From the NCBI GenBank assembly GCA_964525635.1, contig CAZGJX010000053.1:1-27643 (forward strand): DNA of 27,643 nt, in the 5' to 3' direction. Shown one piece after another: positions 7,641 to 21,245 of the stretch (its first letter is position 1; each line of letters opens with the position of its first letter). Under the pieces are notes generated by a model that saw nothing but the letters and a program-made list of their open reading frames with translations, searched no databases and was not told where the DNA came from. The translations under genes and the position numbers were made by a program. This stretch comes from an uncultured archaeon (GTDB lineage: Archaea; Asgardarchaeota; Lokiarchaeia; Sigyniarchaeales; SOKP01).

Positions 7641-10022
7641 TTATTCTATGGAGGGATCAATATTCTTTCTATTTTCTTTTGCTTTTTTGATGTTTTTTAT
7701 TGCTTTATGTAATTTTTCAATATTAGCAGATAATGGAAGTTGTTTATCGTAATTTTTATAATTATGATTAAGACATTCTAAGAAACCTTCCCATTCTATA
7801 CTTTTCTTTTTAGATATTCTAATTTCATCATAAAGAGTAGTAAGTATCTCCTCATGGTTTTGCTCTTTTAGATGCATCAAAAAGTTATTGGTTATAGATT
7901 TTTTGACAATTTGATATTCTTCTGGTCTAAATTTTGATAGTAATTCATTCATTTCAAAATCAAAATAAGGAATAATTAGTATTTTTTTATCATCAGGATT
8001 ATCTTGATTATCTACTAATGTAAGTTCTAAATCTATTAAGCTAAGGCTCATTAATATAGGAGTTATAGCCCCTAATGAAATTCTTGTCTTACTTTTAATA
8101 ACTTTTGCAATATCAGATATAGGAATATAAATTTCTGGATAATCAGATCTGTTCTCAATACGATATTTATATTCCATTTTTAAAATTTTAATTATTTTTT
8201 TCTTTGACCTTATATCAAGAAGTTCGCTTTTAAACGGTATATCTTTTAATTTACTTAATTTTTCAGCTCTTTCTTGCTTATGAATTTGTTTTTTATCATA
8301 AGTAGAAGTTAAGGAAGCAATAAATTGATCAGATGCTTTTCCCGATTTTAAATTTTTTCCTAGTTTACTTAAATCCTTCACTTTTTTTGAAGTTGTTTTA
8401 ACTAGTTCCTCTGCAAGATATTTCTTTGCTTTTTTTTCAGCCTTTTCTTTTTTCTCAAATCTCTCTGTAATTGAGATAAAATCAATCCAAATCCCTTTAT
8501 TTCCATAATCATCTGACATTTCATTTAAAGTTATATTAAAATCCTTATCAGCTAATCTTTTAATTAATGAATATAATGTTGCTTTTGATAATTTTGTTGC
8601 TTTAATCAGTTCTCTTTCTAATATCTCTAATGGAAATGCTTCACCACGCCGTATATATTCGTTTCTTATTAATTTATAAACAACTTTCGTACTTTCATCT
8701 TCTTTATTAACCGTTTCTTTTTGCATTCTGACAAACATTGATGTTTGATGAGGTTTTATATAGTAGACTAACAATGTAATACCAAGAAAAGATATCATAA
8801 GTATAGAGATTATGTATTTATCTGCCAAAAATACATTGCCTAGTATTGTTATTTCTTGATTTTTTATATCATTTGTAAGAGCAAATCTCGCTAGAGTCTG
8901 AGCAAGAACACAACCTAGAAAAAATAAGATTAATCCATCTCTTTTAAAGAATAAAAATTGCCAACCATAAGATTTTCCCAACTTAAGAATAACACGATAA
9001 AGAAATATCATAGAAATCATATATTCAAAAATAAAAATGTAAGTAATAGCAGTATTATTATTTGCACCCACAGTTGATTTTATTGCAGCTAGGGTTTCTG
9101 GTTGTAAGAATAAGAAAACACTCATCTGAAAAATTTGGAAGAAGAAAATAAAAAAAATAATCAATGAGAAAGTAAAATTATCAAAGGTACCAGCTCTTCT
9201 TGTCTCAGCTTTTATCCTTGTAGACATAAATTCTAAAATTATAAATATTATTGTCATAACTAAACTAAAATAGATTAATGGCATAATTACTCTCATTTCT
9301 AAATCAAAAACAGCATGAGCATCACTTGCACTAGAATCAGGAAAAAAATCTAAAGAAAGTAATACTAAAAAAGTCCTATAAAATAGAGAACTAAAAATTA
9401 AAGAGATTGCAATAATTATAGGGAAAATCAGCGCAATAAAATATCTTGAGGGTGAATATTTCTTTATAAATCTATATTCTATTCTTGTAGAGAATTTCCT
9501 AGAATAAATATAGAACCTACTACTTAATATGATAATCCAGATAAATGATAATACTAAAAAATAAGTAATGAAGTTTATACTATAACCAATAATAAAAAAA
9601 AGATAATAATATCCTATGAATACTAATCCAAATATAACTATTTGCTTTAGTATTGATAATTTCCCAAATATAAAATGTCTGATTTTTTCTATATTAATAA
9701 ATATTGATAAGGTTAAGAAGAATGCAAGTAAAGCATTTCCAAAACTAAATGGGTCTCCAAATGCAAGATATTTTATTAATATATTATTAGGATCATTGAT
9801 TCCCCATAAAAATAAAAATGAATAGAATATGAAGATGAAATATAAACCAAAAAACTTTTTTTCAAATGCATAAGATTTTGGGGGTTCTTGTCCCTTGAGA
9901 TAAATCTTTTTAGTTAAAACTTTATCTTTTATATTTTTAAGATTAGTTTGAACACTTGAATTTACTCCTTTAATTTTTTTTTTTAGTCCCCTTGAAGTTG
10001 ATTTCCTATATTTATTAGCCAT
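7641..10022 (-). CDS. Multi-pass membrane protein with cytoplasmic C-terminal region containing two winged-helix-like repeats (function unknown)
   Basis: About 10-12 hydrophobic segments in aa ~55-422, followed by a charged ~370-aa tail with two similar helix-helix-helix-hairpin units. Confidence 0.7.
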   Translation of the reverse strand: MANKYRKSTSRGLKKKIKGVNSSVQTNLKNIKDKVLTKKIYLKGQEPPKSYAFEKKFFGLYFIFIFYSFLFLWGINDPNNILIKYLAFGDPFSFGNALLAFFLTLSIFINIEKIRHFIFGKLSILKQIVIFGLVFIGYYYLFFIIGYSINFITYFLVLSFIWIIILSSRFYIYSRKFSTRIEYRFIKKYSPSRYFIALIFPIIIAISLIFSSLFYRTFLVLLSLDFFPDSSASDAHAVFDLEMRVIMPLIYFSLVMTIIFIILEFMSTRIKAETRRAGTFDNFTFSLIIFFIFFFQIFQMSVFLFLQPETLAAIKSTVGANNNTAITYIFIFEYMISMIFLYRVILKLGKSYGWQFLFFKRDGLILFFLGCVLAQTLARFALTNDIKNQEITILGNVFLADKYIISILMISFLGITLLVYYIKPHQTSMFVRMQKETVNKEDESTKVVYKLIRNEYIRRGEAFPLEILERELIKATKLSKATLYSLIKRLADKDFNITLNEMSDDYGNKGIWIDFISITERFEKKEKAEKKAKKYLAEELVKTTSKKVKDLSKLGKNLKSGKASDQFIASLTSTYDKKQIHKQERAEKLSKLKDIPFKSELLDIRSKKKIIKILKMEYKYRIENRSDYPEIYIPISDIAKVIKSKTRISLGAITPILMSLSLIDLELTLVDNQDNPDDKKILIIPYFDFEMNELLSKFRPEEYQIVKKSITNNFLMHLKEQNHEEILTTLYDEIRISKKKSIEWEGFLECLNHNYKNYDKQLPLSANIEKLHKAIKNIKKAKENRKNIDPSIE

Positions 10023-10321: not shown

Positions 10322-10600
10322 ATGGAGAAAGAAAAATTAAACTCCAAAAATAGTATAATAAAGCTAATCAAAAAAGCTATAGAACTATTATGTGAAAAAA
10401 ATATTTCAGAAGTAGTAATTCTATCATCCTATAAAATATCATCTATATTAAATGATAATTTTGGTATTAATATAAAGACTGACAAGATTGGCAGAGTTTT
10501 AAGTAATTTAGCTAAGAGAAATGAGTTAAAAAGATTAAATACAAACATTCCAAAATATAAATTACAAATATCTCGAGTACCATATCTGAAGTTCTTTTAA
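10322..10600 (+). CDS. Small basic winged-helix-like hypothetical protein
   Basis: 92 aa, Lys-rich. LSSYKISSIL..IKTDKIGRVLSNLAKRNELKR..PKYKL resembles a wHTH with a wing. Confidence 0.5.
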   Translation: MEKEKLNSKNSIIKLIKKAIELLCEKNISEVVILSSYKISSILNDNFGINIKTDKIGRVLSNLAKRNELKRLNTNIPKYKLQISRVPYLKFF

Positions 10601-10630
10601 ATTTATTGAAGAAGAAAATAACTTATTATA

Positions 10631-11974
10631 TTATAATTTCCTAAGTATTGAAAGATGATCTTCTAACTTTTTAAGCTTTTCATCCATCTCCGAATATGCA
10701 CTTTCAATATTATTTATTTCTGTGTTCAATAAATTAATTTGATTTGTATTTTCTGTTCTTTTTTCATCTATTGTTTCTTTTATTTTTATTGAGATTTTTT
10801 CTGACATTTCTCTGATATTATTTTCAAGTTTTAAATGCATTTCTGATAGTTTTTGAAATTTTTCTTTATTTGTAATATTTATATTCTGTAAATTGCTTAC
10901 TTTTTCATTAATTTTATTAATTGTCTGTCCAAATTGTTCACTATAATTCTCGGAATTCTCTTTAATCATTTCAACAATATCATTTAGCATTTGTTTTTGC
11001 TTGTTGTTGAGATTATTGATAAATTCTTTTTGACTCTCAATCCTTTGATCAATAGAATTTGAAATAGATTCCCTAAATATATTAGTTAAATCACCTATTT
11101 CTTTATTAAACCAAGTTTTAATCTTAACCATTCCAGAAGAAATATTTTCTTCCATTTGAATTAGGATTTCTAATAATTTGTAGTTTCCATTTAAACAATT
11201 ATTACTTATATCTTCCATCCAATTAGAGATATCTCCCTCAATAAGATCACTAACATTGTTTAAAAATGATGTACTGGCTTTTTGAAGTTTATCTTGAAAA
11301 GATGAATCCTTTTCAATAGTCTCTTCTTCAATAATAGGTATTTCCTGCAAGTCTTTAGGCTTTATTTCAGATATTTCTTCTATTTCTTTAATTAAAATAG
11401 GATTATTTTTGTAAAAATCTTCAGCAAATTTTTGTATCCATTTAAAATATTCTAATGTGTTTGGTAATTCAATTTTATAATTAATTGTCTCATATTTATC
11501 AAAATCTGCTTTTTTATAATCTAAAAGTCTATAAATTTTAAATCCAAAATTATTTTCACTATCCAATAATGTTGGATCACAAACAATACAGAAGGCTTTT
11601 GGTTTTTTATTATTTTGAATACATAAATGACTTTGAATATCCTGACTTCTCCATTCTAATCCATTTGATGGATGAGATATATACCATCCTTTAATTTCAA
11701 GATTTTGTTCTTTATAATTTTCTTCAATCTTTTTGATTAAATCTATATAACTTTGAGACATTCCTATATGAATATCATGTCCATGTGATATTGGAATAGC
11801 ATTTATTATTTTTTCATTTCCATCTTCATTTTTATTTCCCAAACAATAACCTATAGTTTCATATTTTTTTTCTAAAGATTCATGGCCAAATCTAAGTATA
11901 TGTGTAATCATATTCCTAAATGCTTCTTTTGCAATAAAAATCTCATTATTTATTATATTACTTTCATTCATCAT
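10631..11974 (-). CDS. JAB/MPN-domain protein with degenerate JAMM motif (predicted MPN-) and long C-terminal coiled coil
   Basis: N-terminal MPN: MITHILRFG, ETIGYCLG, AIPISHG, GWYISHPSNGLEWRSQD. The first JAMM His is Ile and the conserved Ser position is Arg. About 230 aa of helical/heptad tail follow. Confidence 0.8.
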   Translation of the reverse strand: MMNESNIINNEIFIAKEAFRNMITHILRFGHESLEKKYETIGYCLGNKNEDGNEKIINAIPISHGHDIHIGMSQSYIDLIKKIEENYKEQNLEIKGWYISHPSNGLEWRSQDIQSHLCIQNNKKPKAFCIVCDPTLLDSENNFGFKIYRLLDYKKADFDKYETINYKIELPNTLEYFKWIQKFAEDFYKNNPILIKEIEEISEIKPKDLQEIPIIEEETIEKDSSFQDKLQKASTSFLNNVSDLIEGDISNWMEDISNNCLNGNYKLLEILIQMEENISSGMVKIKTWFNKEIGDLTNIFRESISNSIDQRIESQKEFINNLNNKQKQMLNDIVEMIKENSENYSEQFGQTINKINEKVSNLQNINITNKEKFQKLSEMHLKLENNIREMSEKISIKIKETIDEKRTENTNQINLLNTEINNIESAYSEMDEKLKKLEDHLSILRKL

Positions 11975-13489
11975 TTATTCCCCCTTGTTTGCTTTTTCTA
12001 TTTGTTGTTTAAGTTTAATATTTTCATTCCTTAAATCTTCTGTTTGTTTTTCTAAATTCTTCTTATTTACATTTGATTCATCTAATTTTTTTTTAAGATT
12101 TTGATTTTCATTATTTAAGGTATTTAGTCTATCTTTTAATGATTCTAATTGATCTTTTATATTTATTTTAAAAGCTTCTAAATTTGAATTTATTTTTTTC
12201 GACCTTTTAGCGAGATTAGTTATATTCTCATATGAATTTTTATATTCTTTTTTATATTGTCTCTGAACTTCTTCATAATAATCTTTTAAATCATTAATTA
12301 TCTTATTTTGAATAGAATCACTCAATTTATATAATTCATCAAGAGACTCTTTTTGTTTATTTATTTTATTTGATAATTCAGAGTTAATATTTTCAATATC
12401 TTCAATTTTTGTCATACTATTTTTAGATAAAGAAATTAACTTTTCCTCCAATTCACTCTTTATAATATTTAAAGAATTATTTAACTCTGTTTTCGTTTTA
12501 TCTTCTAAGGAATCAATTGAATTATTAATGTTGTTAATATTTTTATCTAATACCTCGAATCTATCCTCTATATAATAATCTAAACTATTCAAGTTAGTTT
12601 CTAATGAATTCTTCAGGAAATTTTGTATTTCTTCTATCTTTATACCGAGTGTATTTTTTAATCTTAATTGAATTTCTTTCATTGATAAATTGAGATTTAT
12701 TATTTCCCGTCCTATATTTCGAATCCATTTGTTAAATTTAATAATTAAAGAATTCAATATTGTGTCTATTAATCCTGAAATTCCAGATTTTATCGTATCA
12801 GTAATCTTTATTGGATCTAAGTCTGGTATTTTTACCATCAGCTGGTTGTCATTTGGAAAATCAATTTCCCCAAATATTTGTGGTTTTTCATTTATTTCTA
12901 GAATGGGTGGCTCCTTAGTATGAATACTTTCAATTACTTTTACCATTTTATCATAAAAATCAAGTGATTCGGGACTTTCAACTATTGTGTTCACTTCATG
13001 ATAGTTTGATAAATCACCTCTATTAGGATCATCAAGTCTAAATGTCCTAAACCCTAAGTCTCCAGGTTTTTCTAAATAATTATGGTCAAATACCATTCCA
13101 ATAGCACTTCGGTTCGCTGATTGCCAACCTAGTTGATTTCTTATATCTGTACTAGAGAAAAATATGTCTAATCCTGGATGACTATGATACCATCCAACTG
13201 TAAACCAATTCTTTTTAGCAAATTTTTCGTCAACTAATGAAAAAGATACATAGTCAGTAGGAGCAAAAGTCACTTCTATCGAACCTCCATGAGATATTGG
13301 CACAGCATCTTCGATGATAACATCCTGAATTTTATTATTTCCTTCTAAATGTCCAATTAACATTCCCATTACTTCCTTATATTGATTTCTCGGACGAGTT
13401 TTTGAACCAAATCTCAATACATGAAGTAACATCTTATAATAGGCAATAGGTTTGATTTTCACAATCGCGTTATCACTATAATTAGACAT
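11975..13489 (-). CDS. JAB/MPN+ (JAMM) metalloprotease with long C-terminal coiled coil
   Basis: EVMGMLIG and GWYHSHPGLDIFFSSTD form an intact E...HxHx7Sx2D motif, followed by a ~280-aa helical tail ending in clear heptads. Start placed at the ATG at 13489, preceded by an SD-like GAGGT; the ORF track starts at 13501. Confidence 0.88.
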   Translation of the reverse strand: MSNYSDNAIVKIKPIAYYKMLLHVLRFGSKTRPRNQYKEVMGMLIGHLEGNNKIQDVIIEDAVPISHGGSIEVTFAPTDYVSFSLVDEKFAKKNWFTVGWYHSHPGLDIFFSSTDIRNQLGWQSANRSAIGMVFDHNYLEKPGDLGFRTFRLDDPNRGDLSNYHEVNTIVESPESLDFYDKMVKVIESIHTKEPPILEINEKPQIFGEIDFPNDNQLMVKIPDLDPIKITDTIKSGISGLIDTILNSLIIKFNKWIRNIGREIINLNLSMKEIQLRLKNTLGIKIEEIQNFLKNSLETNLNSLDYYIEDRFEVLDKNINNINNSIDSLEDKTKTELNNSLNIIKSELEEKLISLSKNSMTKIEDIENINSELSNKINKQKESLDELYKLSDSIQNKIINDLKDYYEEVQRQYKKEYKNSYENITNLAKRSKKINSNLEAFKINIKDQLESLKDRLNTLNNENQNLKKKLDESNVNKKNLEKQTEDLRNENIKLKQQIEKANKGE

Positions 13490-13746
13490 ACGACCTCTCA
13501 TTCTTAGATCACTTTTTCTTATTATTTAGGATATTAATTTTTGTTCTATATATTTATTCAAATCTTATAAATTTTCTAAAAAAAAATATGACTTTTTTTA
13601 ATTTTTACGAAAACAATGTGGTTATTAATTTTATTTTTTAGTTGTTTTAATAATTATCCATATTGTTTAATTTTTAAATTGATTTATATAGTTGGTTCAT
13701 ATTTAGATAATTAAAATAAATGAAAAATAATATCAAGATTATTTAA

Positions 13747-14370
13747 TCACTTATGCGGAAGTGGTTTTCCACAATAAGGGCAAAATTTCCAGTCTATATC
13801 CTTTCCGCAAAAGGGGCAGAATGTCGATTCAGGAGAATTTATTGAAGCACCACTAGGAATTGATGGTAAATTTCTTCGTGAGTGAATAGTTCCTGTGCTT
13901 TCCTCTGCTTGAAAGGAAGTAAATCTTTCTTGAAATGCTTTACGTTTTGAATCTTCGCTAATAGATTGAGGTGCTTGATCTTCTGACCAACCACTAGTTC
14001 TTGGTCTTTTTAATTCATTTTCAGGTACTCTTTCTAATTCTACATCCTTTGTTTCAGAAATAGGAGCGATAAACTTTTGTTTATCCTTATTTTGTATAGC
14101 TTGTTTTACTAATGCTTGTGTTGTTTTCATAACTTGATGTGGATTAATATTTGGAATTGCAACTGTCCTTAGTACCCACCCTACAACAAGATTTTGATTG
14201 GGAAATCCACCTTGAGAATCTTCATCCTTATAAATATATGAATCAATTATATCTTTACCCTTTAAAATTCTACTTGCCCATTTTTCATTAATGAGCCCTA
14301 ATTGAAGACGATAAGAAGTACCAGGAATTCCTAATTGGCTTGTTAATGGGTTAAAACCTTTTTCAGTCAA
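13747..14370 (-). CDS. Hypothetical protein with C-terminal zinc ribbon (two CxxC)
   Basis: Globular N-terminal region, low-complexity linker and C-terminal CPFCGKDIDWKFCPYCGKPLP. The probable start is the TTG at 14370 behind an SD-like GAGGG (14378-14382). The 30 extra codons in the ORF track look like AT-rich intergenic sequence. Confidence 0.7.
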   Translation of the reverse strand: MTEKGFNPLTSQLGIPGTSYRLQLGLINEKWASRILKGKDIIDSYIYKDEDSQGGFPNQNLVVGWVLRTVAIPNINPHQVMKTTQALVKQAIQNKDKQKFIAPISETKDVELERVPENELKRPRTSGWSEDQAPQSISEDSKRKAFQERFTSFQAEESTGTIHSRRNLPSIPSGASINSPESTFCPFCGKDIDWKFCPYCGKPLPHK

Positions 14371-14595
14371 ATTATTTCCCTCATAAAAAGATATTTTTTT
14401 ATAAATATAAAGAATTATTGAATATAAATAGATTTTGCAAAAATTAACCAAAGAATACATCTAACAAAATTAAACTCTTTAATTTATATTTTATTATAGT
14501 AAAAAATGTCCTAAGCATTCTAATTCTTCGAAAAATAAAAGTATAAATAAAAAATCTTTTATTAACTATTTAAAAATTTCTCTCGTCTTAATAAT

Positions 14596-15546
14596 ATGAC
14601 CGTTATCATACCTAAAAAGGTTTACCAGACAATTGTAGCAGCAGTAGTTAGATTTGCTAATGTAAAAATTCCTTTTGATGACTGGCTTGAAGTTTATGGT
14701 GTATTCATTGGTAAAAATGAAGGAAATGATGTAATTATTTCACAAGCTTTCCCAATTTGTCATCAAGAAAAGAATCCAGAGGACGTAATCGACAAGGTAT
14801 ACTGGAATGACGAGGATTATGAAAGCTTTAGCATTATAGATGATGAAGCGTTCAATCGGGGTGAGTTTACGGTCGGTTGGTGGCATAGCCATCCAGGATT
14901 TAAGGTAATGATGTCACAGCTCGATGTAAAAACAACTCTTTCTTATCAACAATTCAATCCTAAAGCTGTTTCTTTAGTATTTAATCCAACCCGTCTTTTA
15001 AGACAAATTGAACTTCCAGATAAAAAAGGTAATCCAGTTAAACAATTAAAAAATGATCCTGGTTTTAAGATCTATAGATTAGATGATGTAAATGCAGGAA
15101 TTCAAGCATCATACCATGAAGTAGATTATACCGTTCAAGGATATGAAAGTATGGAGCAAATAGTAAAATTAAATCAGAAGTTTGTAATTGACATTACTAA
15201 TCTCTTTCCTCATAATAAGATTTATCAAACTTATCAGAAATATGTAGATGATAAAATTAAAGAATTGAACTCAAGAATATTGGGTACAGAAGAATATTTA
15301 ATAACCTTAGTTCGTCAAGGTGAGAGTAGTAGAACTAAAGAGGTTCTTGAAAGCCAAATTAAGGATATAAAAAGGTTTATAGCTACAACTTATATGAATA
15401 TTGAAATGATAAAAGAATTCATGGATTATTTAGAATATAAAGAAAGAGACATAATTATTCCTAAAGTAAAGGATATTTTGGCAAATTGGGATGAATCTAT
15501 TACTAAATTAAATAAAAAATTCGAAGAACTAGAAAACAAATTTTAA
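14596..15546 (+). CDS. JAB/MPN+ (JAMM) metalloprotease, Rpn11/CSN5-like, with C-terminal helical region
   Basis: EVYGVFIG and GWWHSHPGFKVMMSQLD form an intact JAMM motif, followed by SYQQFNPKAVSLVFNP and a ~130-aa helical C-terminus. Confidence 0.88.
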   Translation: MTVIIPKKVYQTIVAAVVRFANVKIPFDDWLEVYGVFIGKNEGNDVIISQAFPICHQEKNPEDVIDKVYWNDEDYESFSIIDDEAFNRGEFTVGWWHSHPGFKVMMSQLDVKTTLSYQQFNPKAVSLVFNPTRLLRQIELPDKKGNPVKQLKNDPGFKIYRLDDVNAGIQASYHEVDYTVQGYESMEQIVKLNQKFVIDITNLFPHNKIYQTYQKYVDDKIKELNSRILGTEEYLITLVRQGESSRTKEVLESQIKDIKRFIATTYMNIEMIKEFMDYLEYKERDIIIPKVKDILANWDESITKLNKKFEELENKF

Positions 15547-15547
15547 T

Positions 15548-15715
15548 TTAACATTCATGTTCAGAATAACAAGCATCACAGTAATTTTCTTTACATTTAT
15601 CACATTGAATCGCACATACATCACATATCATATTACCACATTTCTCACATGAATAAATTTCATCAAATTCTTCATTTTCTCCACAATTACTACACAATGC
15701 ATATTTTTTAGTCAT
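15548..15715 (-). CDS. 55-aa Cys-rich zinc-finger protein (five CxxC plus terminal HxC); absent from ORF track
   Basis: Translated by hand: MTKKYALCSNCGENEEFDEIYSCEKCGNMICDVCAIQCDKCKENYCDACYSEHEC*. ATG at 15715, TAA at 15550-15548. Confidence 0.85.
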   Translation of the reverse strand: MTKKYALCSNCGENEEFDEIYSCEKCGNMICDVCAIQCDKCKENYCDACYSEHEC

Positions 15716-15980: not shown

Positions 15981-18818
15981 ATGTTGAGAAATAGTAAAAA
16001 ATTTTACTTAAAATCACTAATCATATCAATATTATTTATGAATATTTTAGTGGTGGCATCATTTAATATCCATATATTTGGAAATAACTCGCAAGAAATA
16101 ACCTATGAAAATTATAGTATCAAAAAAATTAAAAATAATGCTGAACCAATACAATCTGAGAAATTAGCTACTTATTATAATGGCAGTGGTAGAGCTTATG
16201 ACGTATTTGTCTCGGGTGATGTAGCATATATAGCTGATTATAGTGATGGTTTGGAGTTTGTTAATATATCTAATCCTTCTCAACCTGAAGTAATAGGAGG
16301 AATTGATGTAGGTGTACCAGTCTATGGAGTGTTTATATCAGGCGATGTAGCCTATATAGCATGTGGAAGTGGTGGTTTAAAAATAGTTAATATTAGTGAT
16401 CTATATGATCCATTTGAGTTAGGTAGTTATGATGATGATATTAATGAAAGGGGTGCTTATAGAGTTTATGTTGAGGGCCATATTGCTTATGTTGCAGATA
16501 GAGAGGATGGACTTGAACTTATAGATATAAGTAATCCATATTTACCTATTGAAGTAGGTCAATATAGTGATCTTAATAATAATACTTATGATGTATGTGT
16601 TTCTGGTACTTTTGCATATGTAGCAGATGGGAATGATGGAGTAGAAATTATAGATATAAGTGATCCACAACAACCTAAGAAGATTGGACAATATTTTGAC
16701 AGTTATAACAATACTAGAAGTGTTAGCCTCTCTGGAACCAAATTATATGTTGCTGATTTTTATAGTGGAGTTGAAATTATAGATATAAGCAATCCTTATA
16801 ATCCTATTAAAATAGCAGAATACTCAAATATATTAGCTGAAGATATCTTCATTTTTGGAAATACAGGATATTTCTTAGATCATTCTGAAGGTTTTGATAT
16901 TGTTGACATAAGTAATTCAAGTGATATGACAAAATTAGGTGGATATAATGTAGTTGGCGAATTATTTTCAATTTTTTTCTCTAATAATATAGTTTATGCA
17001 GCAGTTCATATAAAAGGAGTAGAAATTGTTAATGTTACTTCGATTGAGGGTCGATGGAATATTCCAGAGGAAATTGGGCATTTTGATGATGTTGATGGAG
17101 AATCAATGGATTTATACGTATGGGATAATTATGTTTATATTGCAGATCTGGATGGAGGATTGGAAATTATTAATATAACAGATCCAACTCAACCAGTAGA
17201 AGCAGGACAATACTATGATGGTAGTGGAACAGCAAGGGATGTAGTTGTATCAAATAATATTGCTTATGTTGCTGATTATAGTGATGGCCTAGAAATTATA
17301 AATGTCACTGATCCAACAAATGCAACTGGAAGTTTTAGAGAAATAGGTTATTATCAGGACGGGGATGGAGGAGGTGTTGTACGTGGTGTATATGTGTCTG
17401 GAAATTTTGCTTATATTACAGATGGTGGAAATTTAGAAATTATAAATATAACAGATCCAACAAATCCAACTGAAATAGGACAATGCGCTGTTTCGGGTTC
17501 ATATGATATAGAAGTAGTTGGAAATTTCGCTTTTGTTTCATGTTGGAGTTATGATTTAAGGATTGTTGATATTAGAGATCCAACTAATCCTAAATTGGTT
17601 GGTGAATTAGATAATGGAGGTTCTAATTGGAAATTATCAGTTTTTGGAGATTATCTATATCTGGCTGATCATAGTACAGGTCTTGAAATAATAGATATAA
17701 GTAATCCATATGAACCTGAGTGGGTATTGGAAGTATTTAATGAGGGTATTCAAGATGCTCGAGATGTTTTCCCATTTGGAAATATTGCCTTTTTCGCTGA
17801 TGGAGTTGATGGAGTAGAATATATTGATATAAGTGTACCTTCTAATGTTTCAAGATCACATCAAACTAATCAATATAGTGTTGCTGTATATGTTGATAAT
17901 AATTATATATATCAAGTTTCATTAGCAGGAGGATTTTACATTTTTGATAATGGTTATATAAATCCATATAGAACATATAGTGATAGTGATGAGTTGAGTG
18001 ATGGTGAAGAGATCTTTATTTATGGAACCGATCCTGATGATTGGGATTCTGATGATGATGAATTGAGTGATTCAGATGAAATAATTTGGAATACTGATCC
18101 AAATAATTGGGATGATGATGGAGATTTAATGCCAGATGGGTGGGAAGTTAATAATGAATTAAATCCAAAAATAGATGATGCAGATGAAGATTTTGATTTA
18201 GATGGTCTTACTAACATATTTGAGTATAATTATGGAGGTCTCTTTGCAAATAATAGTGATAGTGATGGTGATGGAATGCCAGATGGGTGGGAACTTCAAA
18301 ATAGCTTGAATCCTATATTTGATGACGCGGGTCAAGATCCCGATACTGACGGTCTTATTAATGTAGAAGAATATAATCATGGAACTCTTCCTCAAAATGA
18401 TGATTGTGATAATGATGGATACAATGATGGCGCTGAGGTAAATGCTGGTACAGATCCATGGAATCCAGATAGTCACCCTGGACAGATCAGTCCAGAATTT
18501 CCATGGTATATTCAAGCAATCTTGGGTGGAATTATAAGTGCTTCTGTTGGTATCGCAATAAAAGTATCATATAGTAGATTTAAGAAAAGGCAGGAATTGC
18601 TTAATAGAATGTTATTTCGAATAAAAAAGATTGATAATATCGAAGTATTTCTAAAAGAAAAATTAGGTTATAAAGAATGGCTAAAGCTTAAGGAACCATT
18701 AGAGCTATATCAAAACAGAGAAATTGATAGTAAAGCACTTATAAAACAAGGTAAAAAAGAAGTTGGAGATAAATTTATTGACGCATTTTTAGAGAAACAT
18801 GATCATGATTATAAATAA
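15981..18818 (+). CDS. Cell-surface protein: LVIVD-repeat beta-propellers, Ca-binding DxDxDG repeats, single TM helix and cytoplasmic tail
   Basis: N-terminal hydrophobic signal, 14 repeats of type V.V.G..AY.AD...GLEII.IS.P..P, and 7 acidic repeats (e.g. DSDGDGMPDGWE). TM segment WYIQAILGGIISASVGIAIKV, then a ~80-aa charged tail. Confidence 0.85.
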   Translation: MLRNSKKFYLKSLIISILFMNILVVASFNIHIFGNNSQEITYENYSIKKIKNNAEPIQSEKLATYYNGSGRAYDVFVSGDVAYIADYSDGLEFVNISNPSQPEVIGGIDVGVPVYGVFISGDVAYIACGSGGLKIVNISDLYDPFELGSYDDDINERGAYRVYVEGHIAYVADREDGLELIDISNPYLPIEVGQYSDLNNNTYDVCVSGTFAYVADGNDGVEIIDISDPQQPKKIGQYFDSYNNTRSVSLSGTKLYVADFYSGVEIIDISNPYNPIKIAEYSNILAEDIFIFGNTGYFLDHSEGFDIVDISNSSDMTKLGGYNVVGELFSIFFSNNIVYAAVHIKGVEIVNVTSIEGRWNIPEEIGHFDDVDGESMDLYVWDNYVYIADLDGGLEIINITDPTQPVEAGQYYDGSGTARDVVVSNNIAYVADYSDGLEIINVTDPTNATGSFREIGYYQDGDGGGVVRGVYVSGNFAYITDGGNLEIINITDPTNPTEIGQCAVSGSYDIEVVGNFAFVSCWSYDLRIVDIRDPTNPKLVGELDNGGSNWKLSVFGDYLYLADHSTGLEIIDISNPYEPEWVLEVFNEGIQDARDVFPFGNIAFFADGVDGVEYIDISVPSNVSRSHQTNQYSVAVYVDNNYIYQVSLAGGFYIFDNGYINPYRTYSDSDELSDGEEIFIYGTDPDDWDSDDDELSDSDEIIWNTDPNNWDDDGDLMPDGWEVNNELNPKIDDADEDFDLDGLTNIFEYNYGGLFANNSDSDGDGMPDGWELQNSLNPIFDDAGQDPDTDGLINVEEYNHGTLPQNDDCDNDGYNDGAEVNAGTDPWNPDSHPGQISPEFPWYIQAILGGIISASVGIAIKVSYSRFKKRQELLNRMLFRIKKIDNIEVFLKEKLGYKEWLKLKEPLELYQNREIDSKALIKQGKKEVGDKFIDAFLEKHDHDYK

Positions 18819-19040: not shown

Positions 19041-21245
19041 ATGAAGAATCTGAATTTTCCTTATTCAGCCATACTTGGGCAAGGTAAGATGAAAATGGCT
19101 TTGATCTTGAACGTTATAGATCCTCAAATAGGGGGAGTTCTCTTAACGGGACATCAAGGAACGGGTAAATCTACAGCAGTTCGTTCCTTGGTAGAAGTAA
19201 TGCCTCAAATCGATATTGTTAAAGGTTGTCTATTTTCATGTGATCCTGAATCAAACTTAGATGATTTATGTATAGAATGCAGGAATAAAAAAGAAGAAAA
19301 AAAGATTGAAATAGATAAAAGAGATATGCTTTTAGTTAACTTACCTTTAGGAGTTACTGAAGACATGGTCTGTGGATCTCTCTCAATAGATAAGGTTCTT
19401 ACAGAAGGTATATCTAAACTACATCCGGGTTTATTAGCTAAAGCAAACAGAGGTATTTTATATATTGATGAAATAAATCTTCTGCAAGATCATATAGTAG
19501 ATACTTTATTAGATGCTTCGGCCTCAGGTGTTAATATAATAGAGCGCGAAGGAATTTCAGTAATGCATCCATCAAGATTTGTATTAGTTGGTTCTATGAA
19601 TCCCGAAGAAGGGGAACTAAGGCCTCAAATCGCTGATAGATTAGGTTTAGAAGTAAAAATAATAGCTCCTGATGATCCTAAACAAAGAGCAGAGATAACT
19701 AAAAGAGTAATAGAGTTTAATGATAATCCAAGAGAATTTATTAAAATATATGAAAAGGATCAAGAAAATCTAAAGCAAAAAATGATAAAAGCAAGAAAAA
19801 TAGTTAAGAATGTGAAAATACCACATTCTATTTATGAGCTTGTATCAAAAATTGTAAAAGAACTTGGAGTTTTTTCTCAGAGAACAGATATAACATTTAT
19901 AAGATGTGCTCGAGCCCATGCTGCTTTTGAAGAACGAACCATTATTAATGAAGATGATCTTAATACAGCAATGGATTTAGTGTTTGAACATAGAATCAAA
20001 TCACTTCATTATGAAATGAGTCCAGAAGAAATTAAAGGTAAAGTAAGTGAAGTATATGGAAAGATCAAAAAGGCTTATGAAGATCCTGATATATATCAAC
20101 CAAATAAAGATACAGAAGGACCTTTAAAATATTCAGATAAACCCCAAAAAGAATTTGAAAGGCAATCAATAGATCCAGAAAAAGTTGATTTTCCTGAAAC
20201 AAAAGAGGAAAAATTACCTCCACCTAAATATCCAGATGAAAAAAAAAGAAATTCGAGTCCTGCTGAAGGGTGGAAAGTAAAAGATTTAGCCATTGATGAT
20301 GACTTAAATATTTTCAGTGATCAATTTGAAATAATTCCTTTTATTTATAAAATGGAAAAAAAAATGACGTCTATTTTGGATAACATACGAAAAGAACGGA
20401 GAATTACTAATTATGGAGGAAGAGGAATTGGTAGAAGAATTAAAACCCTTTCTTCTCAGAAGGGAAGATATGTTTCATATAGAGTCCCTATGAATCTACA
20501 TCCTACAGGTATAGCACTAGATGCTACAATCAGAAACTATTTAAAAAGTACAGTTTATAACAGAACTGAAATAGATTTTCCGATTAGATTTAATAAATAT
20601 GACTTAATGGATAAAATTTATGAATATAGAGCTCCGTTAGCACTCTTTTTTGTTCTTGACAGTTCTGCATCGATGTATTATGTTATAAAACAAATGACTG
20701 ATGTTATTTTATCACTCCATAAAGAAGGATATAGGAAAAAAGATAAGATTTGTTTGATTGTATTTAGGGGTAAAGAAGCAGTAGTTTTACAAAAACCAAC
20801 AGTTTCATTTCAAAATGCAATCCAAAAATCAAAATGTATAGAAGGAAAATCATATACACCTATGGCAGCGGGTTTAAAAAAATGTCTTGAATTAATAAAA
20901 ATAGAGAAATTAAAAAATAGAAATATAATTCCTGTTATTTTTATATGTTCTGATTGTGGAGCTAATATCTCAGTAAAATATCCTGAATTGATCGCCCAAG
21001 TTGAAAGTGATTATATATTGATTGTCCAAGAATTGAAAGAGATTACAAAATCATTAACTCATCAAAATGCTCATATGGTTGTCTTGGAACCGAAAAAAAG
21101 TTATGCCACTCAAAATCTTGGTGTTCATCCGTATTCTGCAGATCAGATTAAAAGAAACTTTAAGGATTTTGGAAATGCTGAAATATATCAGTTTGATAAA
21201 TATAATCCATCATCTCTTATTCTACAATTGAAAAAGATTCTTTAA
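19041..21245 (+). CDS. ChlI/ChlD-type chelatase-family AAA+ ATPase with C-terminal vWA domain
   Basis: FPYSAILGQ, Walker A GHQGTGKS, LPLGVTED, PGLLAKANRGILYIDEINLL (Walker B), EREGIS, SMNPEEGELRPQ, an acidic/Pro-rich linker and the vWA MIDAS motif DSSAS. Confidence 0.9.
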   Translation: MKNLNFPYSAILGQGKMKMALILNVIDPQIGGVLLTGHQGTGKSTAVRSLVEVMPQIDIVKGCLFSCDPESNLDDLCIECRNKKEEKKIEIDKRDMLLVNLPLGVTEDMVCGSLSIDKVLTEGISKLHPGLLAKANRGILYIDEINLLQDHIVDTLLDASASGVNIIEREGISVMHPSRFVLVGSMNPEEGELRPQIADRLGLEVKIIAPDDPKQRAEITKRVIEFNDNPREFIKIYEKDQENLKQKMIKARKIVKNVKIPHSIYELVSKIVKELGVFSQRTDITFIRCARAHAAFEERTIINEDDLNTAMDLVFEHRIKSLHYEMSPEEIKGKVSEVYGKIKKAYEDPDIYQPNKDTEGPLKYSDKPQKEFERQSIDPEKVDFPETKEEKLPPPKYPDEKKRNSSPAEGWKVKDLAIDDDLNIFSDQFEIIPFIYKMEKKMTSILDNIRKERRITNYGGRGIGRRIKTLSSQKGRYVSYRVPMNLHPTGIALDATIRNYLKSTVYNRTEIDFPIRFNKYDLMDKIYEYRAPLALFFVLDSSASMYYVIKQMTDVILSLHKEGYRKKDKICLIVFRGKEAVVLQKPTVSFQNAIQKSKCIEGKSYTPMAAGLKKCLELIKIEKLKNRNIIPVIFICSDCGANISVKYPELIAQVESDYILIVQELKEITKSLTHQNAHMVVLEPKKSYATQNLGVHPYSADQIKRNFKDFGNAEIYQFDKYNPSSLILQLKKIL

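Follow-up and report, generated by a model that had tools for sequence, protein, structure and literature searches.

A Lokiarchaeial locus with three MPN-domain genes, possibly a family-specific juxtaposition of older two-gene units

The locus lies in a window of 27,643 nt (the whole stretch of DNA that was analyzed) on the forward strand of contig CAZGJX010000053.1, assembly GCA_964525635.1, from an uncultured Lokiarchaeia archaeon (Sigyniarchaeales; SOKP01). Genes were called from open reading frames (ORFs) together with Pfam searches. All six ORFs proposed in the initial sequence-only reading were judged to be real and their coordinates correct; they are listed here with the adjacent membrane protein gene and one intergenic region.

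7641 to 10022, minus strand: TM793, a polytopic membrane protein whose tail is cytoplasmic; its gene is conserved next to that of wHTH
10322 to 10600, plus strand: wHTH, a winged-helix protein of 92 aa
10631 to 11974, minus strand: MPN1, 447 aa, an MPN domain whose JAMM site is broken, and a heptad-repeat tail; the downstream gene of a tandem pair
11975 to 13501, minus strand: MPN2, 508 aa, a JAMM-intact MPN+ domain with a heptad-repeat tail of ~300 aa; the upstream gene of the tandem pair
13747 to 14370, minus strand: ZnR, a zinc-ribbon protein
14371 to 14595, no strand: the 225-bp intergenic region from which ZnR and MPN3 diverge
14596 to 15546, plus strand: MPN3, 316 aa, JAMM-intact
15548 to 15715, minus strand: a microprotein of 55 aa with 11 Cys and 1 His

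The ORFs, the Pfam matches, and a structural model of wHTH confirmed the described content of three MPN genes, a zinc-ribbon gene, a Cys/His microprotein, and a wHTH-like gene, and the coordinates and strands bear out its two divergent arms around 14371–14595. The three MPN proteins belong to the JAB superfamily (PF01398; 32.7 bits for MPN1, 48.0 for MPN2, and 54.4 for MPN3, against a cut-off of 22.5). Named 'hypothetical' or 'Mov34/MPN/PAD-1' in the sources, they are conserved, uncharacterised genes.

A family-model search of the other large ORFs in the window returned no ubiquitin, E1, E2, RING, PCI, or proteasome gene, as had been stated. Across the genome, PCI was represented only by matches of 22–30 bits, in large unrelated proteins, that cover the winged-helix portion of the model. 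Matches to ubiquitin, E2, and E1 were located on contigs C26, C105, C131, and C178, and none on the contig of the window; C26 carries a separate archaeal ubiquitin operon with JAB, E2, E1, and ubiquitin genes. The locus itself, with no adjacent Ub, E1, or E2 gene, is not the archaeal Ub-E1-E2-RING-JAB operon, nor is it a CBASS-type JAB context. The JAB matches from PADLOC were weak and generic (18–27 bits), and among the eight proteins scanned with it no defence component other than JAB, and so no CBASS/Cap3-like arrangement, was detected.

An alignment of the JAMM region revealed intact zinc sites of the HxH-x7-S-x2-D type in MPN2, HSHPGLDIFFSSTD, and in MPN3, HSHPGFKVMMSQLD, each with the upstream Glu of an EV.G motif. 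The corresponding stretch of MPN1, ISHPSNGLEWRSQD, has Ile in place of the first His and Arg in place of the Ser, giving ISHP...R..D versus HSHP...S..D in MPN2 and MPN3. As a zinc-binding His and the JAMM Ser are lost, MPN1 is MPN− in the window genome, and the locus therefore encodes two MPN+ proteins and one MPN− protein there. The JAMM motif was intact in every MPN3 orthologue seen, in 27 of 28 MPN2 orthologues, and in 10 of 23 MPN1 orthologues, with at least five changes on the tree leading to its loss. The GF(K/R)x(Y/F)RL motif, reported to follow the core, is indeed common to the three proteins, but its location was misjudged: in the alignment it coincides with LKFKVFQI in Caldiarchaeum Rpn11 and with VIDAFRLID in the yeast protein, the last strand of the MPN core. 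With its match to AFRL of yeast Rpn11, we rejected it as an extra signature beyond the core.

In the window, the ATG of MPN1 directly follows the MPN2 stop codon, and the two genes abut or overlap at all loci of the Lokiarchaeial family f1 that have both, the exception being G018/L031, where they are 6 kb apart. The tandem is kept beyond f1, in f2 (G030, G037, G039) and f3 (G026); f4 has single MPN-coiled-coil genes. In trees from quick searches, with several weak nodes, MPN1 and MPN2 formed a single clade (SH-aLRT 97) within which the upstream copies of f1 and f2 clustered (91), so that the duplication is older than the f1/f2 split. Within f1, MPN-domain identity was 39% for MPN1 versus 68% for MPN2, and by this measure the catalytic domain of MPN1 is the faster evolving; MPN1 identity within the family falls to 24–31%. 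Heptad signals at residues 306–447 of MPN1 and 244–508 of MPN2 were both far above those of shuffled sequences. These tails are ~25% conserved, and that of MPN2 gave weak matches to SMC, Rad50, and ZorA coiled coils.

MPN2 and MPN1 are thus tandem paralogues of one clade, of active and inactive type, respectively, in the window genome. The inactive state of MPN1 differs from genus to genus and the motif is intact in several, so an active/inactive description covers only part of the family. Retention of the JAMM motif in MPN2, set beside its repeated loss from MPN1, suggests a heterodimer held by coiled coils, in which one subunit is catalytic and the other a scaffold; the translational coupling and heptad tails are only suggestive of this predicted pairing. 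BRCC36–Abraxas and BRCC36–ABRO1 (BRCA1-A, BRISC) would be comparable, pairing an MPN+ protein with an MPN− paralogue through C-terminal coiled-coil parts, and MPN2 matches BRCC36 chains (E 6e-7 to 1e-4). In those complexes, the pseudo-enzyme (Abraxas or ABRO1, also KIAA0157) is required for activity and helical/coiled-coil C-terminal parts hold the dimer (PMC4579573). In contrast to the BRCC36 complexes, the tails here are much longer (250–300 aa), there was no sign of a UEV (BRCC45) partner, the one VWA-domain protein nearby is a seemingly unrelated AAA+-VWA protein of chelatase type, and MPN1 is JAMM-intact in some genera.

The best solved relatives of MPN2 were the Caldiarchaeum Rpn11-like protein (1.1e-12), yeast Rpn11 (2.3e-9), CSN5, and BRCC36, and sequence affinity is greater with Rpn11 and CSN5 than with BRCC36. 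Rpn11–Rpn8 and CSN5–CSN6 are likewise paralogous MPN+/MPN− pairs; however, the likeness is confined to the MPN core, the window has no PCI gene, and proteasome genes are absent from the vicinity. The JAMM family is also shared with the Ub-E1-E2-(RING)-Rpn11-like operon of Caldiarchaeum subterraneum and Asgard archaea, relative to which the locus adds coiled-coil tails, ZnR, and a partner that is a pseudo-enzyme.

Across the intergenic region, ZnR starts with a TTG at 14370, preceded by a Shine-Dalgarno-like GAGGG run, and its orthologues start at the same residue. In the protein, an N-domain of ~95 aa is followed by a charged linker, in which the motifs ELKRP..GW and LPSIP are conserved, and, at the C-terminus, by a CxxC...CxxC zinc ribbon (Zn_Ribbon_1, 28.2 bits); its structural model was poor (pLDDT 57.6), and searches by fold gave no clear assignment. 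The N-domain is 55–77% identical within f1 and rare in a profile search (183 clusters among 1.84e9 representatives), and from the few named matches it appears to be Asgard-restricted. In some cases it is joined to a Ras-like GTPase in a fusion protein. No JAB domain was present in any of 124 ZnR-domain clusters scanned, so the ZnR–MPN3 link is without fusion support.

In MPN3 the loops at the Ins-1 and Ins-2 positions are longer, and a helical C-terminal region of 130 aa is conserved; this tail is 56% conserved versus ~25% for those of MPN1 and MPN2. Its best solved relatives were CSN5 (7.5e-11), Rpn11 (6.6e-9), and AMSH (1e-6), and in its length, its loops, and its helical C-terminus it resembles Rpn11 and CSN5. 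As a stand-alone JAMM+ protein it also resembles AMSH/STAMBP, the endosomal K63 deubiquitinase, for which adaptors are needed for targeting. Unlike AMSH, MPN3 lacks an MIT domain, ESCRT genes are not found close by, and the similarity is below that to CSN5 and Rpn11. Families f1, f2, and f5 all have full-length orthologues. Separately, the MPN3 genes of relatives contain a candidate bulge-helix-bulge mini-intron.

ZnR and MPN3 are divergent neighbours in 40 of the 45 genomes with both on one contig, with gaps of 124–1252 bp. They lie 11–19 kb apart in genus g8 and 38–44 kb apart in g14, neither gene being lost. The 225-bp region had no Rfam match, and inverted repeats there are uninformative, the DNA being AT-rich.

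The AlphaFold model of wHTH (pLDDT 89) has the canonical H1-S1-H2-H3-S2-S3 winged-helix topology. All top structural matches were winged helices, although generic ones (Foldseek E ≥ 0.03; best VIA match the Fur DNA-binding domain, Z 7.7, rmsd 3.5, 76 residues aligned), and neither search assigned a sub-family or demonstrated binding to DNA. The protein is 50–83% identical across 20 loci, is single copy in the window genome, and occurs across the order, being present in 11/11 genomes of f2, 1/1 of f3, and 3/4 of f4, and not found in f5, f6, or f33. Its neighbour TM793 matched no Pfam or NCBIfam family, and in the Atlas its sole match was a Promethearchaeota hypothetical cluster. TM793 adjoins wHTH in f1 and lies 0–4 kb from it in the f2 genomes G038, G040, G030, and G032. 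Outside f1, wHTH is located with TM793 and not with the MPN genes.

The microprotein, convergent with MPN3 and 1 bp from it, has six CxxC-type ligand pairs that could hold up to three Zn. Only four orthologues were found (L027, L028, L029, and L040; genera g1, g3, and g7), among which ten Cys and the His do not vary; three of them adjoin MPN3, the fourth (L029) lying 1.4 kb off. No curated zinc-finger model was matched above threshold (C1_2, 19.5 bits, cut-off 26; B-box, 16.8, cut-off 24.1), and matches in the PDB had E ≥ 0.28. Assignments to the AN1, B-box, and RING zinc fingers were rejected.

Comparison of neighbourhoods disclosed that the order TM793–wHTH–MPN1–MPN2–ZnR–MPN3 is nearly universal within f1 (~20 loci, at least 12 genera). 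In sister families the set splits into three mutually separate pairs: MPN2→MPN1, ZnR/MPN3, and wHTH–TM793. The P-type ATPase, beta-CASP nuclease, and ChlI/ChlD-type chelatase neighbours are likewise conserved in f1; conservation of the arrangement there is therefore not specific, and much of the synteny may be inherited rather than selected. Taken to its end, this would make ZnR, wHTH, and the microprotein unrelated to the MPN proteins, merely not yet shuffled apart, with the MPN2–MPN1 duplicate as the one real association. The inclusion of plainly unrelated genes, the retention of both ZnR and MPN3 where they are separated in g8 and g14, and ZnR fusions that point to small-GTPase biology and not to JAB proteins all fit such a view. 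We nevertheless consider it unlikely, because the ZnR/MPN3 layout persists in f2 (G030, as also in G034) at only ~40% protein identity to the window, with all other cluster genes elsewhere, and because the microprotein, where present, is never farther than 1.4 kb from MPN3.

The sequence-only reading had proposed a dedicated deconjugation or scaffold module. The conserved MPN genes, and the contrast with the ubiquitin operon and with CBASS-type contexts, uphold part of that proposal; the single six-gene module is not supported in that form, as the set falls apart outside f1 and the microprotein is restricted to three genera. A multi-subunit MPN assembly of the six proteins, perhaps together with TM793, in which the zinc and winged-helix proteins would be accessory subunits, could account for the persistence of the full order in nearly all f1 loci despite the divergence of MPN1. 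It would also suit the inversion of the block as a unit relative to its flanks (L027 versus the window) and the different re-association of parts outside f1, where G039 has a TM793-like gene 2 kb away from its MPN cluster and wHTH lies 8 kb from the MPN2–MPN1 pair in G026 and 8–12 kb from ZnR in g14. This has a low probability in our judgement: outside f1 the pairs are on different contigs or >100 kb apart, as in G030, wHTH and TM793 persist in g14 and g21 where no MPN1 or MPN2 orthologue was found, the microprotein is narrowly confined, and housekeeping genes show equal family-level synteny.

On the basis of the observed gene content, motif states, synteny pattern, and duplication order, we lean towards a locus in which three older two-gene units were brought side by side within one family, rather than one six-gene machine. 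MPN1 and MPN2, tandem duplicates each with an Rpn11/CSN5-type MPN domain, would pair via their tails to form a heterodimeric zinc isopeptidase. By analogy with BRCC36–Abraxas and Rpn11–Rpn8, MPN2 would be the cutter, and MPN1, with its decaying active site, a scaffold or activator. ZnR and MPN3 may share a common divergent promoter region; MPN3 could be a second, stand-alone JAMM enzyme, its helical C-terminal domain conserved, with ZnR as its adaptor, regulator, or substrate. The wHTH protein would go with TM793, and the microprotein could be a recent MPN3 accessory.

The JAMM proteins might instead act on SAMP/Urm1-type modifiers, a precursor peptide, or the TM793 tail, or be pure scaffolds, a doubtful reading in spite of the lack of Ub, E1, and E2 in the window, the ubiquitin operon's own JAB gene, and weak matches to the haloarchaeal desampylase model, since those matches score 16–22 bits against a 130-bit cut-off, the eukaryote-type JAB model outscores Prok-JAB for all three MPN proteins, and among solved structures the best relatives are CSN5, Rpn11, and the Caldiarchaeum Rpn11 that processes ubiquitin (CsRpn11). 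These same relatives suggest a eukaryote-type affinity of MPN2 and MPN3, and we infer from their sequences a zinc-dependent ubiquitin or ubiquitin-like isopeptidase activity. Within the three-unit arrangement, likely substrates would be conjugates of ubiquitin or of a ubiquitin-like protein, produced by the Ub-E1-E2 genes that the genome carries elsewhere. In its sequence features, the MPN2–MPN1 pair looks like the active/inactive MPN pairs that, to our knowledge, have been described so far only in eukaryotes.

Six genes between 10322 and 15715, as proposed in the sequence-only reading, were confirmed by ORF listing and Pfam. The MAG to which they belong measures 4.45 Mb and has a very low G+C content (about 20-35%), and public near-identical proteins carry the labels Lokiarchaeota or Promethearchaeota. 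The genes, with the membrane-protein gene next to them, are:

7641..10022 (-): TM793, polytopic membrane protein
10322-10600 (+): wHTH, winged-helix protein, 92 aa
MPN1: JAB/MPN-domain protein, 447 aa, in tandem behind MPN2
MPN2: JAB/MPN-domain protein, 508 aa
13747-14370 (-): ZnR, zinc-ribbon protein, start at TTG 14370 after a GAGGG run
MPN3: JAB/MPN-domain protein, 316 aa, divergent from ZnR
15548-15715 (-): Cys-rich microprotein, 55 aa

The ZnR start agrees with that of 17 orthologues, and the MPN1 ATG directly follows the MPN2 stop. No ubiquitin-system, PCI or proteasome family match was obtained for the window's other large ORFs, in agreement with the first impression of the region; they encode a beta-CASP nuclease, an inositol-phosphate synthase, a P-type ATPase, an LVIVD-repeat protein, a ChlI/ChlD-type chelatase and a hexapeptide transferase. 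The gene for the 945-aa LVIVD-repeat/TSP3-repeat surface-type protein (15981-18818, + strand) lies between the microprotein and chelatase genes and looks like a lineage insertion, since most related genomes have the chelatase gene immediately after MPN3. The chelatase itself (19041-21245, + strand) is a 734-aa AAA+-VWA protein, a putative cobaltochelatase (TIGR02442, E 4e-169, under the curated cut-off), which adjoins MPN3 throughout the Lokiarchaeial family of the window (f1) but not outside it. A role as a lid- or BRISC-like VWA subunit was rejected in view of the TIGR02442 assignment and its location away from the MPN genes outside f1; it is probably unrelated. Rfam gave no match in the window, and only AT-rich pseudo-palindromes were found when operators were sought in the intergenic regions.

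The check proposed for the idea that the MPN genes and their neighbours form one module, neighbourhood conservation, came out divided: gene order holds within f1, but outside f1 the set breaks up. Across 20 f1 loci from 12 or more genera, the order TM793, wHTH, MPN1, MPN2, ZnR, MPN3, then usually the chelatase, is almost invariant, and it is kept although MPN1 identity drops to 24-31%. The P-type ATPase and beta-CASP nuclease genes also stay near in f1, so synteny at the family level is not specific. Outside f1, the MPN2-MPN1 tandem is kept in families f2 (G030, G037, G039) and f3 (G026), in none of which ZnR/MPN3 lies beside it. ZnR and MPN3 adjoin divergently in the f2 genomes G030 and G034. 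Of the 45 genomes in which a single contig carries the two genes, 40 show this divergent arrangement; the exceptions belong to genus g8, where the genes lie 11-19 kb apart, and to genus g14, where they lie 38-44 kb apart and transposases adjoin ZnR. The wHTH gene is single-copy throughout the order and occurs also in genera without a detected MPN1/MPN2 orthologue; in G032 (GCA_021498095.1), for example, orthologues of MPN3, ZnR, wHTH and TM793 were found, but none of MPN1 or MPN2. Outside f1 it was not found beside MPN genes and pairs with TM793, either in the run TM793, CxxCxxCC protein, wHTH, TPR protein or within 2-4 kb. We therefore read the locus as three older pairs joined in one family, and the size of the module as overstated by family-level synteny.

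Two f2 arrangements were recorded alongside. The run TM793, CxxCxxCC (PF03692) protein, wHTH and TPR protein is conserved at L101:5178-9442 (G038) and at L104 (G040), with a guanylate-kinase-like gene and chorismate synthase behind TM793. At L048:5446-9670 (G039), four MPN genes stand in tandem, two encoding short proteins (203 and 246 aa) without the JAMM motif and two encoding JAMM-intact coiled-coil proteins; an 814-aa zinc-ribbon protein is encoded upstream of them, and a TM793-like gene follows 2 kb downstream.

Alignment of the three MPN proteins revealed a complete Glu + HxH-x7-S-x2-D site in MPN2 and MPN3; in MPN1, Ile replaces the first His and Arg replaces the Ser. The motif after the core, flagged at first as a shared signature, aligned with the last core strand of the Caldiarchaeum and yeast Rpn11 proteins and, judged by this alignment, is a family feature and no new signature. 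Among solved structures, the best relative of MPN3 was CSN5 (7.5e-11), followed by Rpn11, AMSH and BRCC36, and that of MPN2 was the Caldiarchaeum Rpn11-like protein (1.1e-12), followed by Rpn11, CSN5 and BRCC36; the same search returned none for MPN1. Heptad periodicity is strong in the tails of MPN1 and MPN2 (54 and 86 windows, where shuffles averaged 6-7), and the tails weakly match SMC, Rad50 and ZorA coiled coils. The whole genome holds six MPN genes, one of them in a canonical JAB-E2-E1-Ub operon on another contig (C26:10927-15195). The Ub ORF of this operon encodes 127 aa with an N-terminal extension of ~50 aa, and a 283-aa ORF with a faint MPN-like match lies divergent to it.

In the MPN-domain tree, the copies of MPN1 and MPN2 fall into a single clade (SH-aLRT 97), within which the upstream copies of f1 and f2 cluster together (SH-aLRT 91), and family f4 has single MPN-coiled-coil genes. 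Taken together, these observations place the tandem duplication before the f1/f2 split. An intact JAMM motif is retained by 27 of 28 MPN2 copies but by only 10 of 23 MPN1 copies, which requires at least five changes of state on the tree, a count that is approximate because the trees are quick and some nodes weak. The catalytic domain of MPN1 also evolves much faster, with a median identity of 39% compared to 68% for that of MPN2. This is the pattern expected if MPN1 and MPN2 were to cooperate with only MPN2 catalysis required.

Six genomes of a subclade of genus g11 carry a 30-31-nt insert in MPN3, right behind the HSHPGF codons; the window's own MPN3 lacks it.

L032:13563-13593 (G022): insert
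L114:371-400 (G207): insert
L065 (G233), L075 (G210), L071 (G294), L073 (G197): insert at the same site

The insert breaks the frame or introduces stop codons, and its exact excision restores the orthologous sequence, GF-K-VMMS. In the consensus fold of five copies, an exon-exon helix is followed by a 3-nt bulge and a 4-bp helix (GGCU/AGCU), and then by a second 3-nt bulge, on the opposite strand, and an inner hairpin with five compensatory pairs. The insert is thus a candidate bulge-helix-bulge mini-intron with the geometry of archaeal splicing-endonuclease substrates. To our knowledge, mRNA introns of this kind have been described only for cbf5 of Crenarchaeota. The cbf5 intron is of the bulge-helix-bulge type (PMC2738675).

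The first ~95 residues of ZnR (N-domain) are conserved above the level of the MPN pair, and a search of 1.84 billion representatives with their profile retrieved only 183 clusters. A Pfam scan covering 124 of these clusters disclosed 11 with zinc ribbons at the end, one with Roadblock, one with gelsolin repeats, none with JAB, and three fusions in which the domain follows a Ras-family GTPase domain (P0145, P0163, P0223). One fusion gene, at L109:1153-2214, is flanked by an Arf/Ras GTPase gene and a Roadblock/LC7 gene. The fusions and this context link the N-domain to Asgard small-GTPase systems. Distant copies in other Asgard classes form the N-terminal part of 290-390-aa proteins, in which no Pfam family exceeded threshold. 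In a distant Asgard genome (GCA_037310415.1), a zf-AN1 protein (L094:7603-7923, - strand) is encoded divergently to a 334-aa protein with the N-domain (L094:8001-9005, + strand), a pair that recalls the zinc microprotein beside ZnR-MPN3.

The ZnR model is poor (pLDDT 57.6). In a VIA wide search with it, Z peaked at 5.5. Most matches were individual beta-propeller blades aligned across ~45 residues; EVH1 and Ran-binding (PH-like) domains scored Z 4.8-4.9 across ~75 residues, and none of the matches stood out. An Atlas structure search with ZnR returned only its own family, an Atlas feature search no usable matches, and the profile had no match under E 0.25 among PDB sequences. A Roadblock identity, suggested by the analogy of Rag GTPases, was rejected on sequence grounds (hhalign probability 0.2% against a Roadblock profile from the same genome). 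Large bacterial proteins carrying cadherin-like repeats (PF12733) repeatedly matched profile positions 9-54, which was taken as beta-hairpin likeness, not homology. The N-domain is rare and apparently Asgard-restricted; gene order ties it to a CSN5/Rpn11-like enzyme, and its fusions tie it to small GTPases.

As described at the outset, wHTH has a confidently predicted winged helix, with generic structural matches to both DNA-binding and protein-binding members; paralogy between wHTH and the winged-helix units of the TM793 tail was rejected (hhalign probability 0.2%). The microprotein, with six conserved ligand pairs, was restricted to genera g1, g3 and g7, where it adjoins MPN3 or lies <=1.4 kb from it; curated family models and the PDB gave no assignment.

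The reading that we favour, as somewhat probable, is that MPN2 and MPN1 would make up a zinc isopeptidase, a coiled-coil heterodimer in which one subunit is catalytic, and that MPN3 would be a second JAMM enzyme with ZnR as its partner. Both JAMM units would act on ubiquitin-type conjugates produced elsewhere in the genome, and wHTH/TM793 would be a unit apart. Prediction of an MPN3 and ZnR 1-135 complex, both given as alignments, scored 0.00, which weighs neither for nor against binding. It is rather improbable that the three pairs in f1 encode one membrane-associated multi-subunit JAMM deubiquitinase, in which the MPN2/MPN1 coiled-coil heterodimer and MPN3 would be joined by ZnR, as the adaptor coupling to Ras-like GTPase signalling, and by a TM793/wHTH anchor, with MPN1 caught mid-way to a pseudo-enzyme. 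If this is true, the eukaryotic MPN+/MPN- machines of the lid, CSN and BRISC type would have a prokaryotic forerunner in the f1 assembly.

In eukaryotic JAMM deubiquitinases (proteasome lid, COP9 signalosome, BRISC), an active MPN+ subunit is held by an inactive MPN- paralogue. According to Fuchs et al. 2018 (PMC6043591), the Rpn11-Rpn8 type of organisation is not known in archaea, and we found no description of the locus, its proteins or an Asgard MPN+/MPN- pair in the literature searched for Asgard MPN, JAMM, CSN5, Rpn8 or BRCC36 proteins. With the favoured MPN2/MPN1 heterodimer, the locus offers a testable Asgard example of a tandem duplicate in which the catalytic site is kept in one copy (27/28) and lost several times in the other. 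Such a duplicate would reveal the origin of pseudo-enzyme partners.
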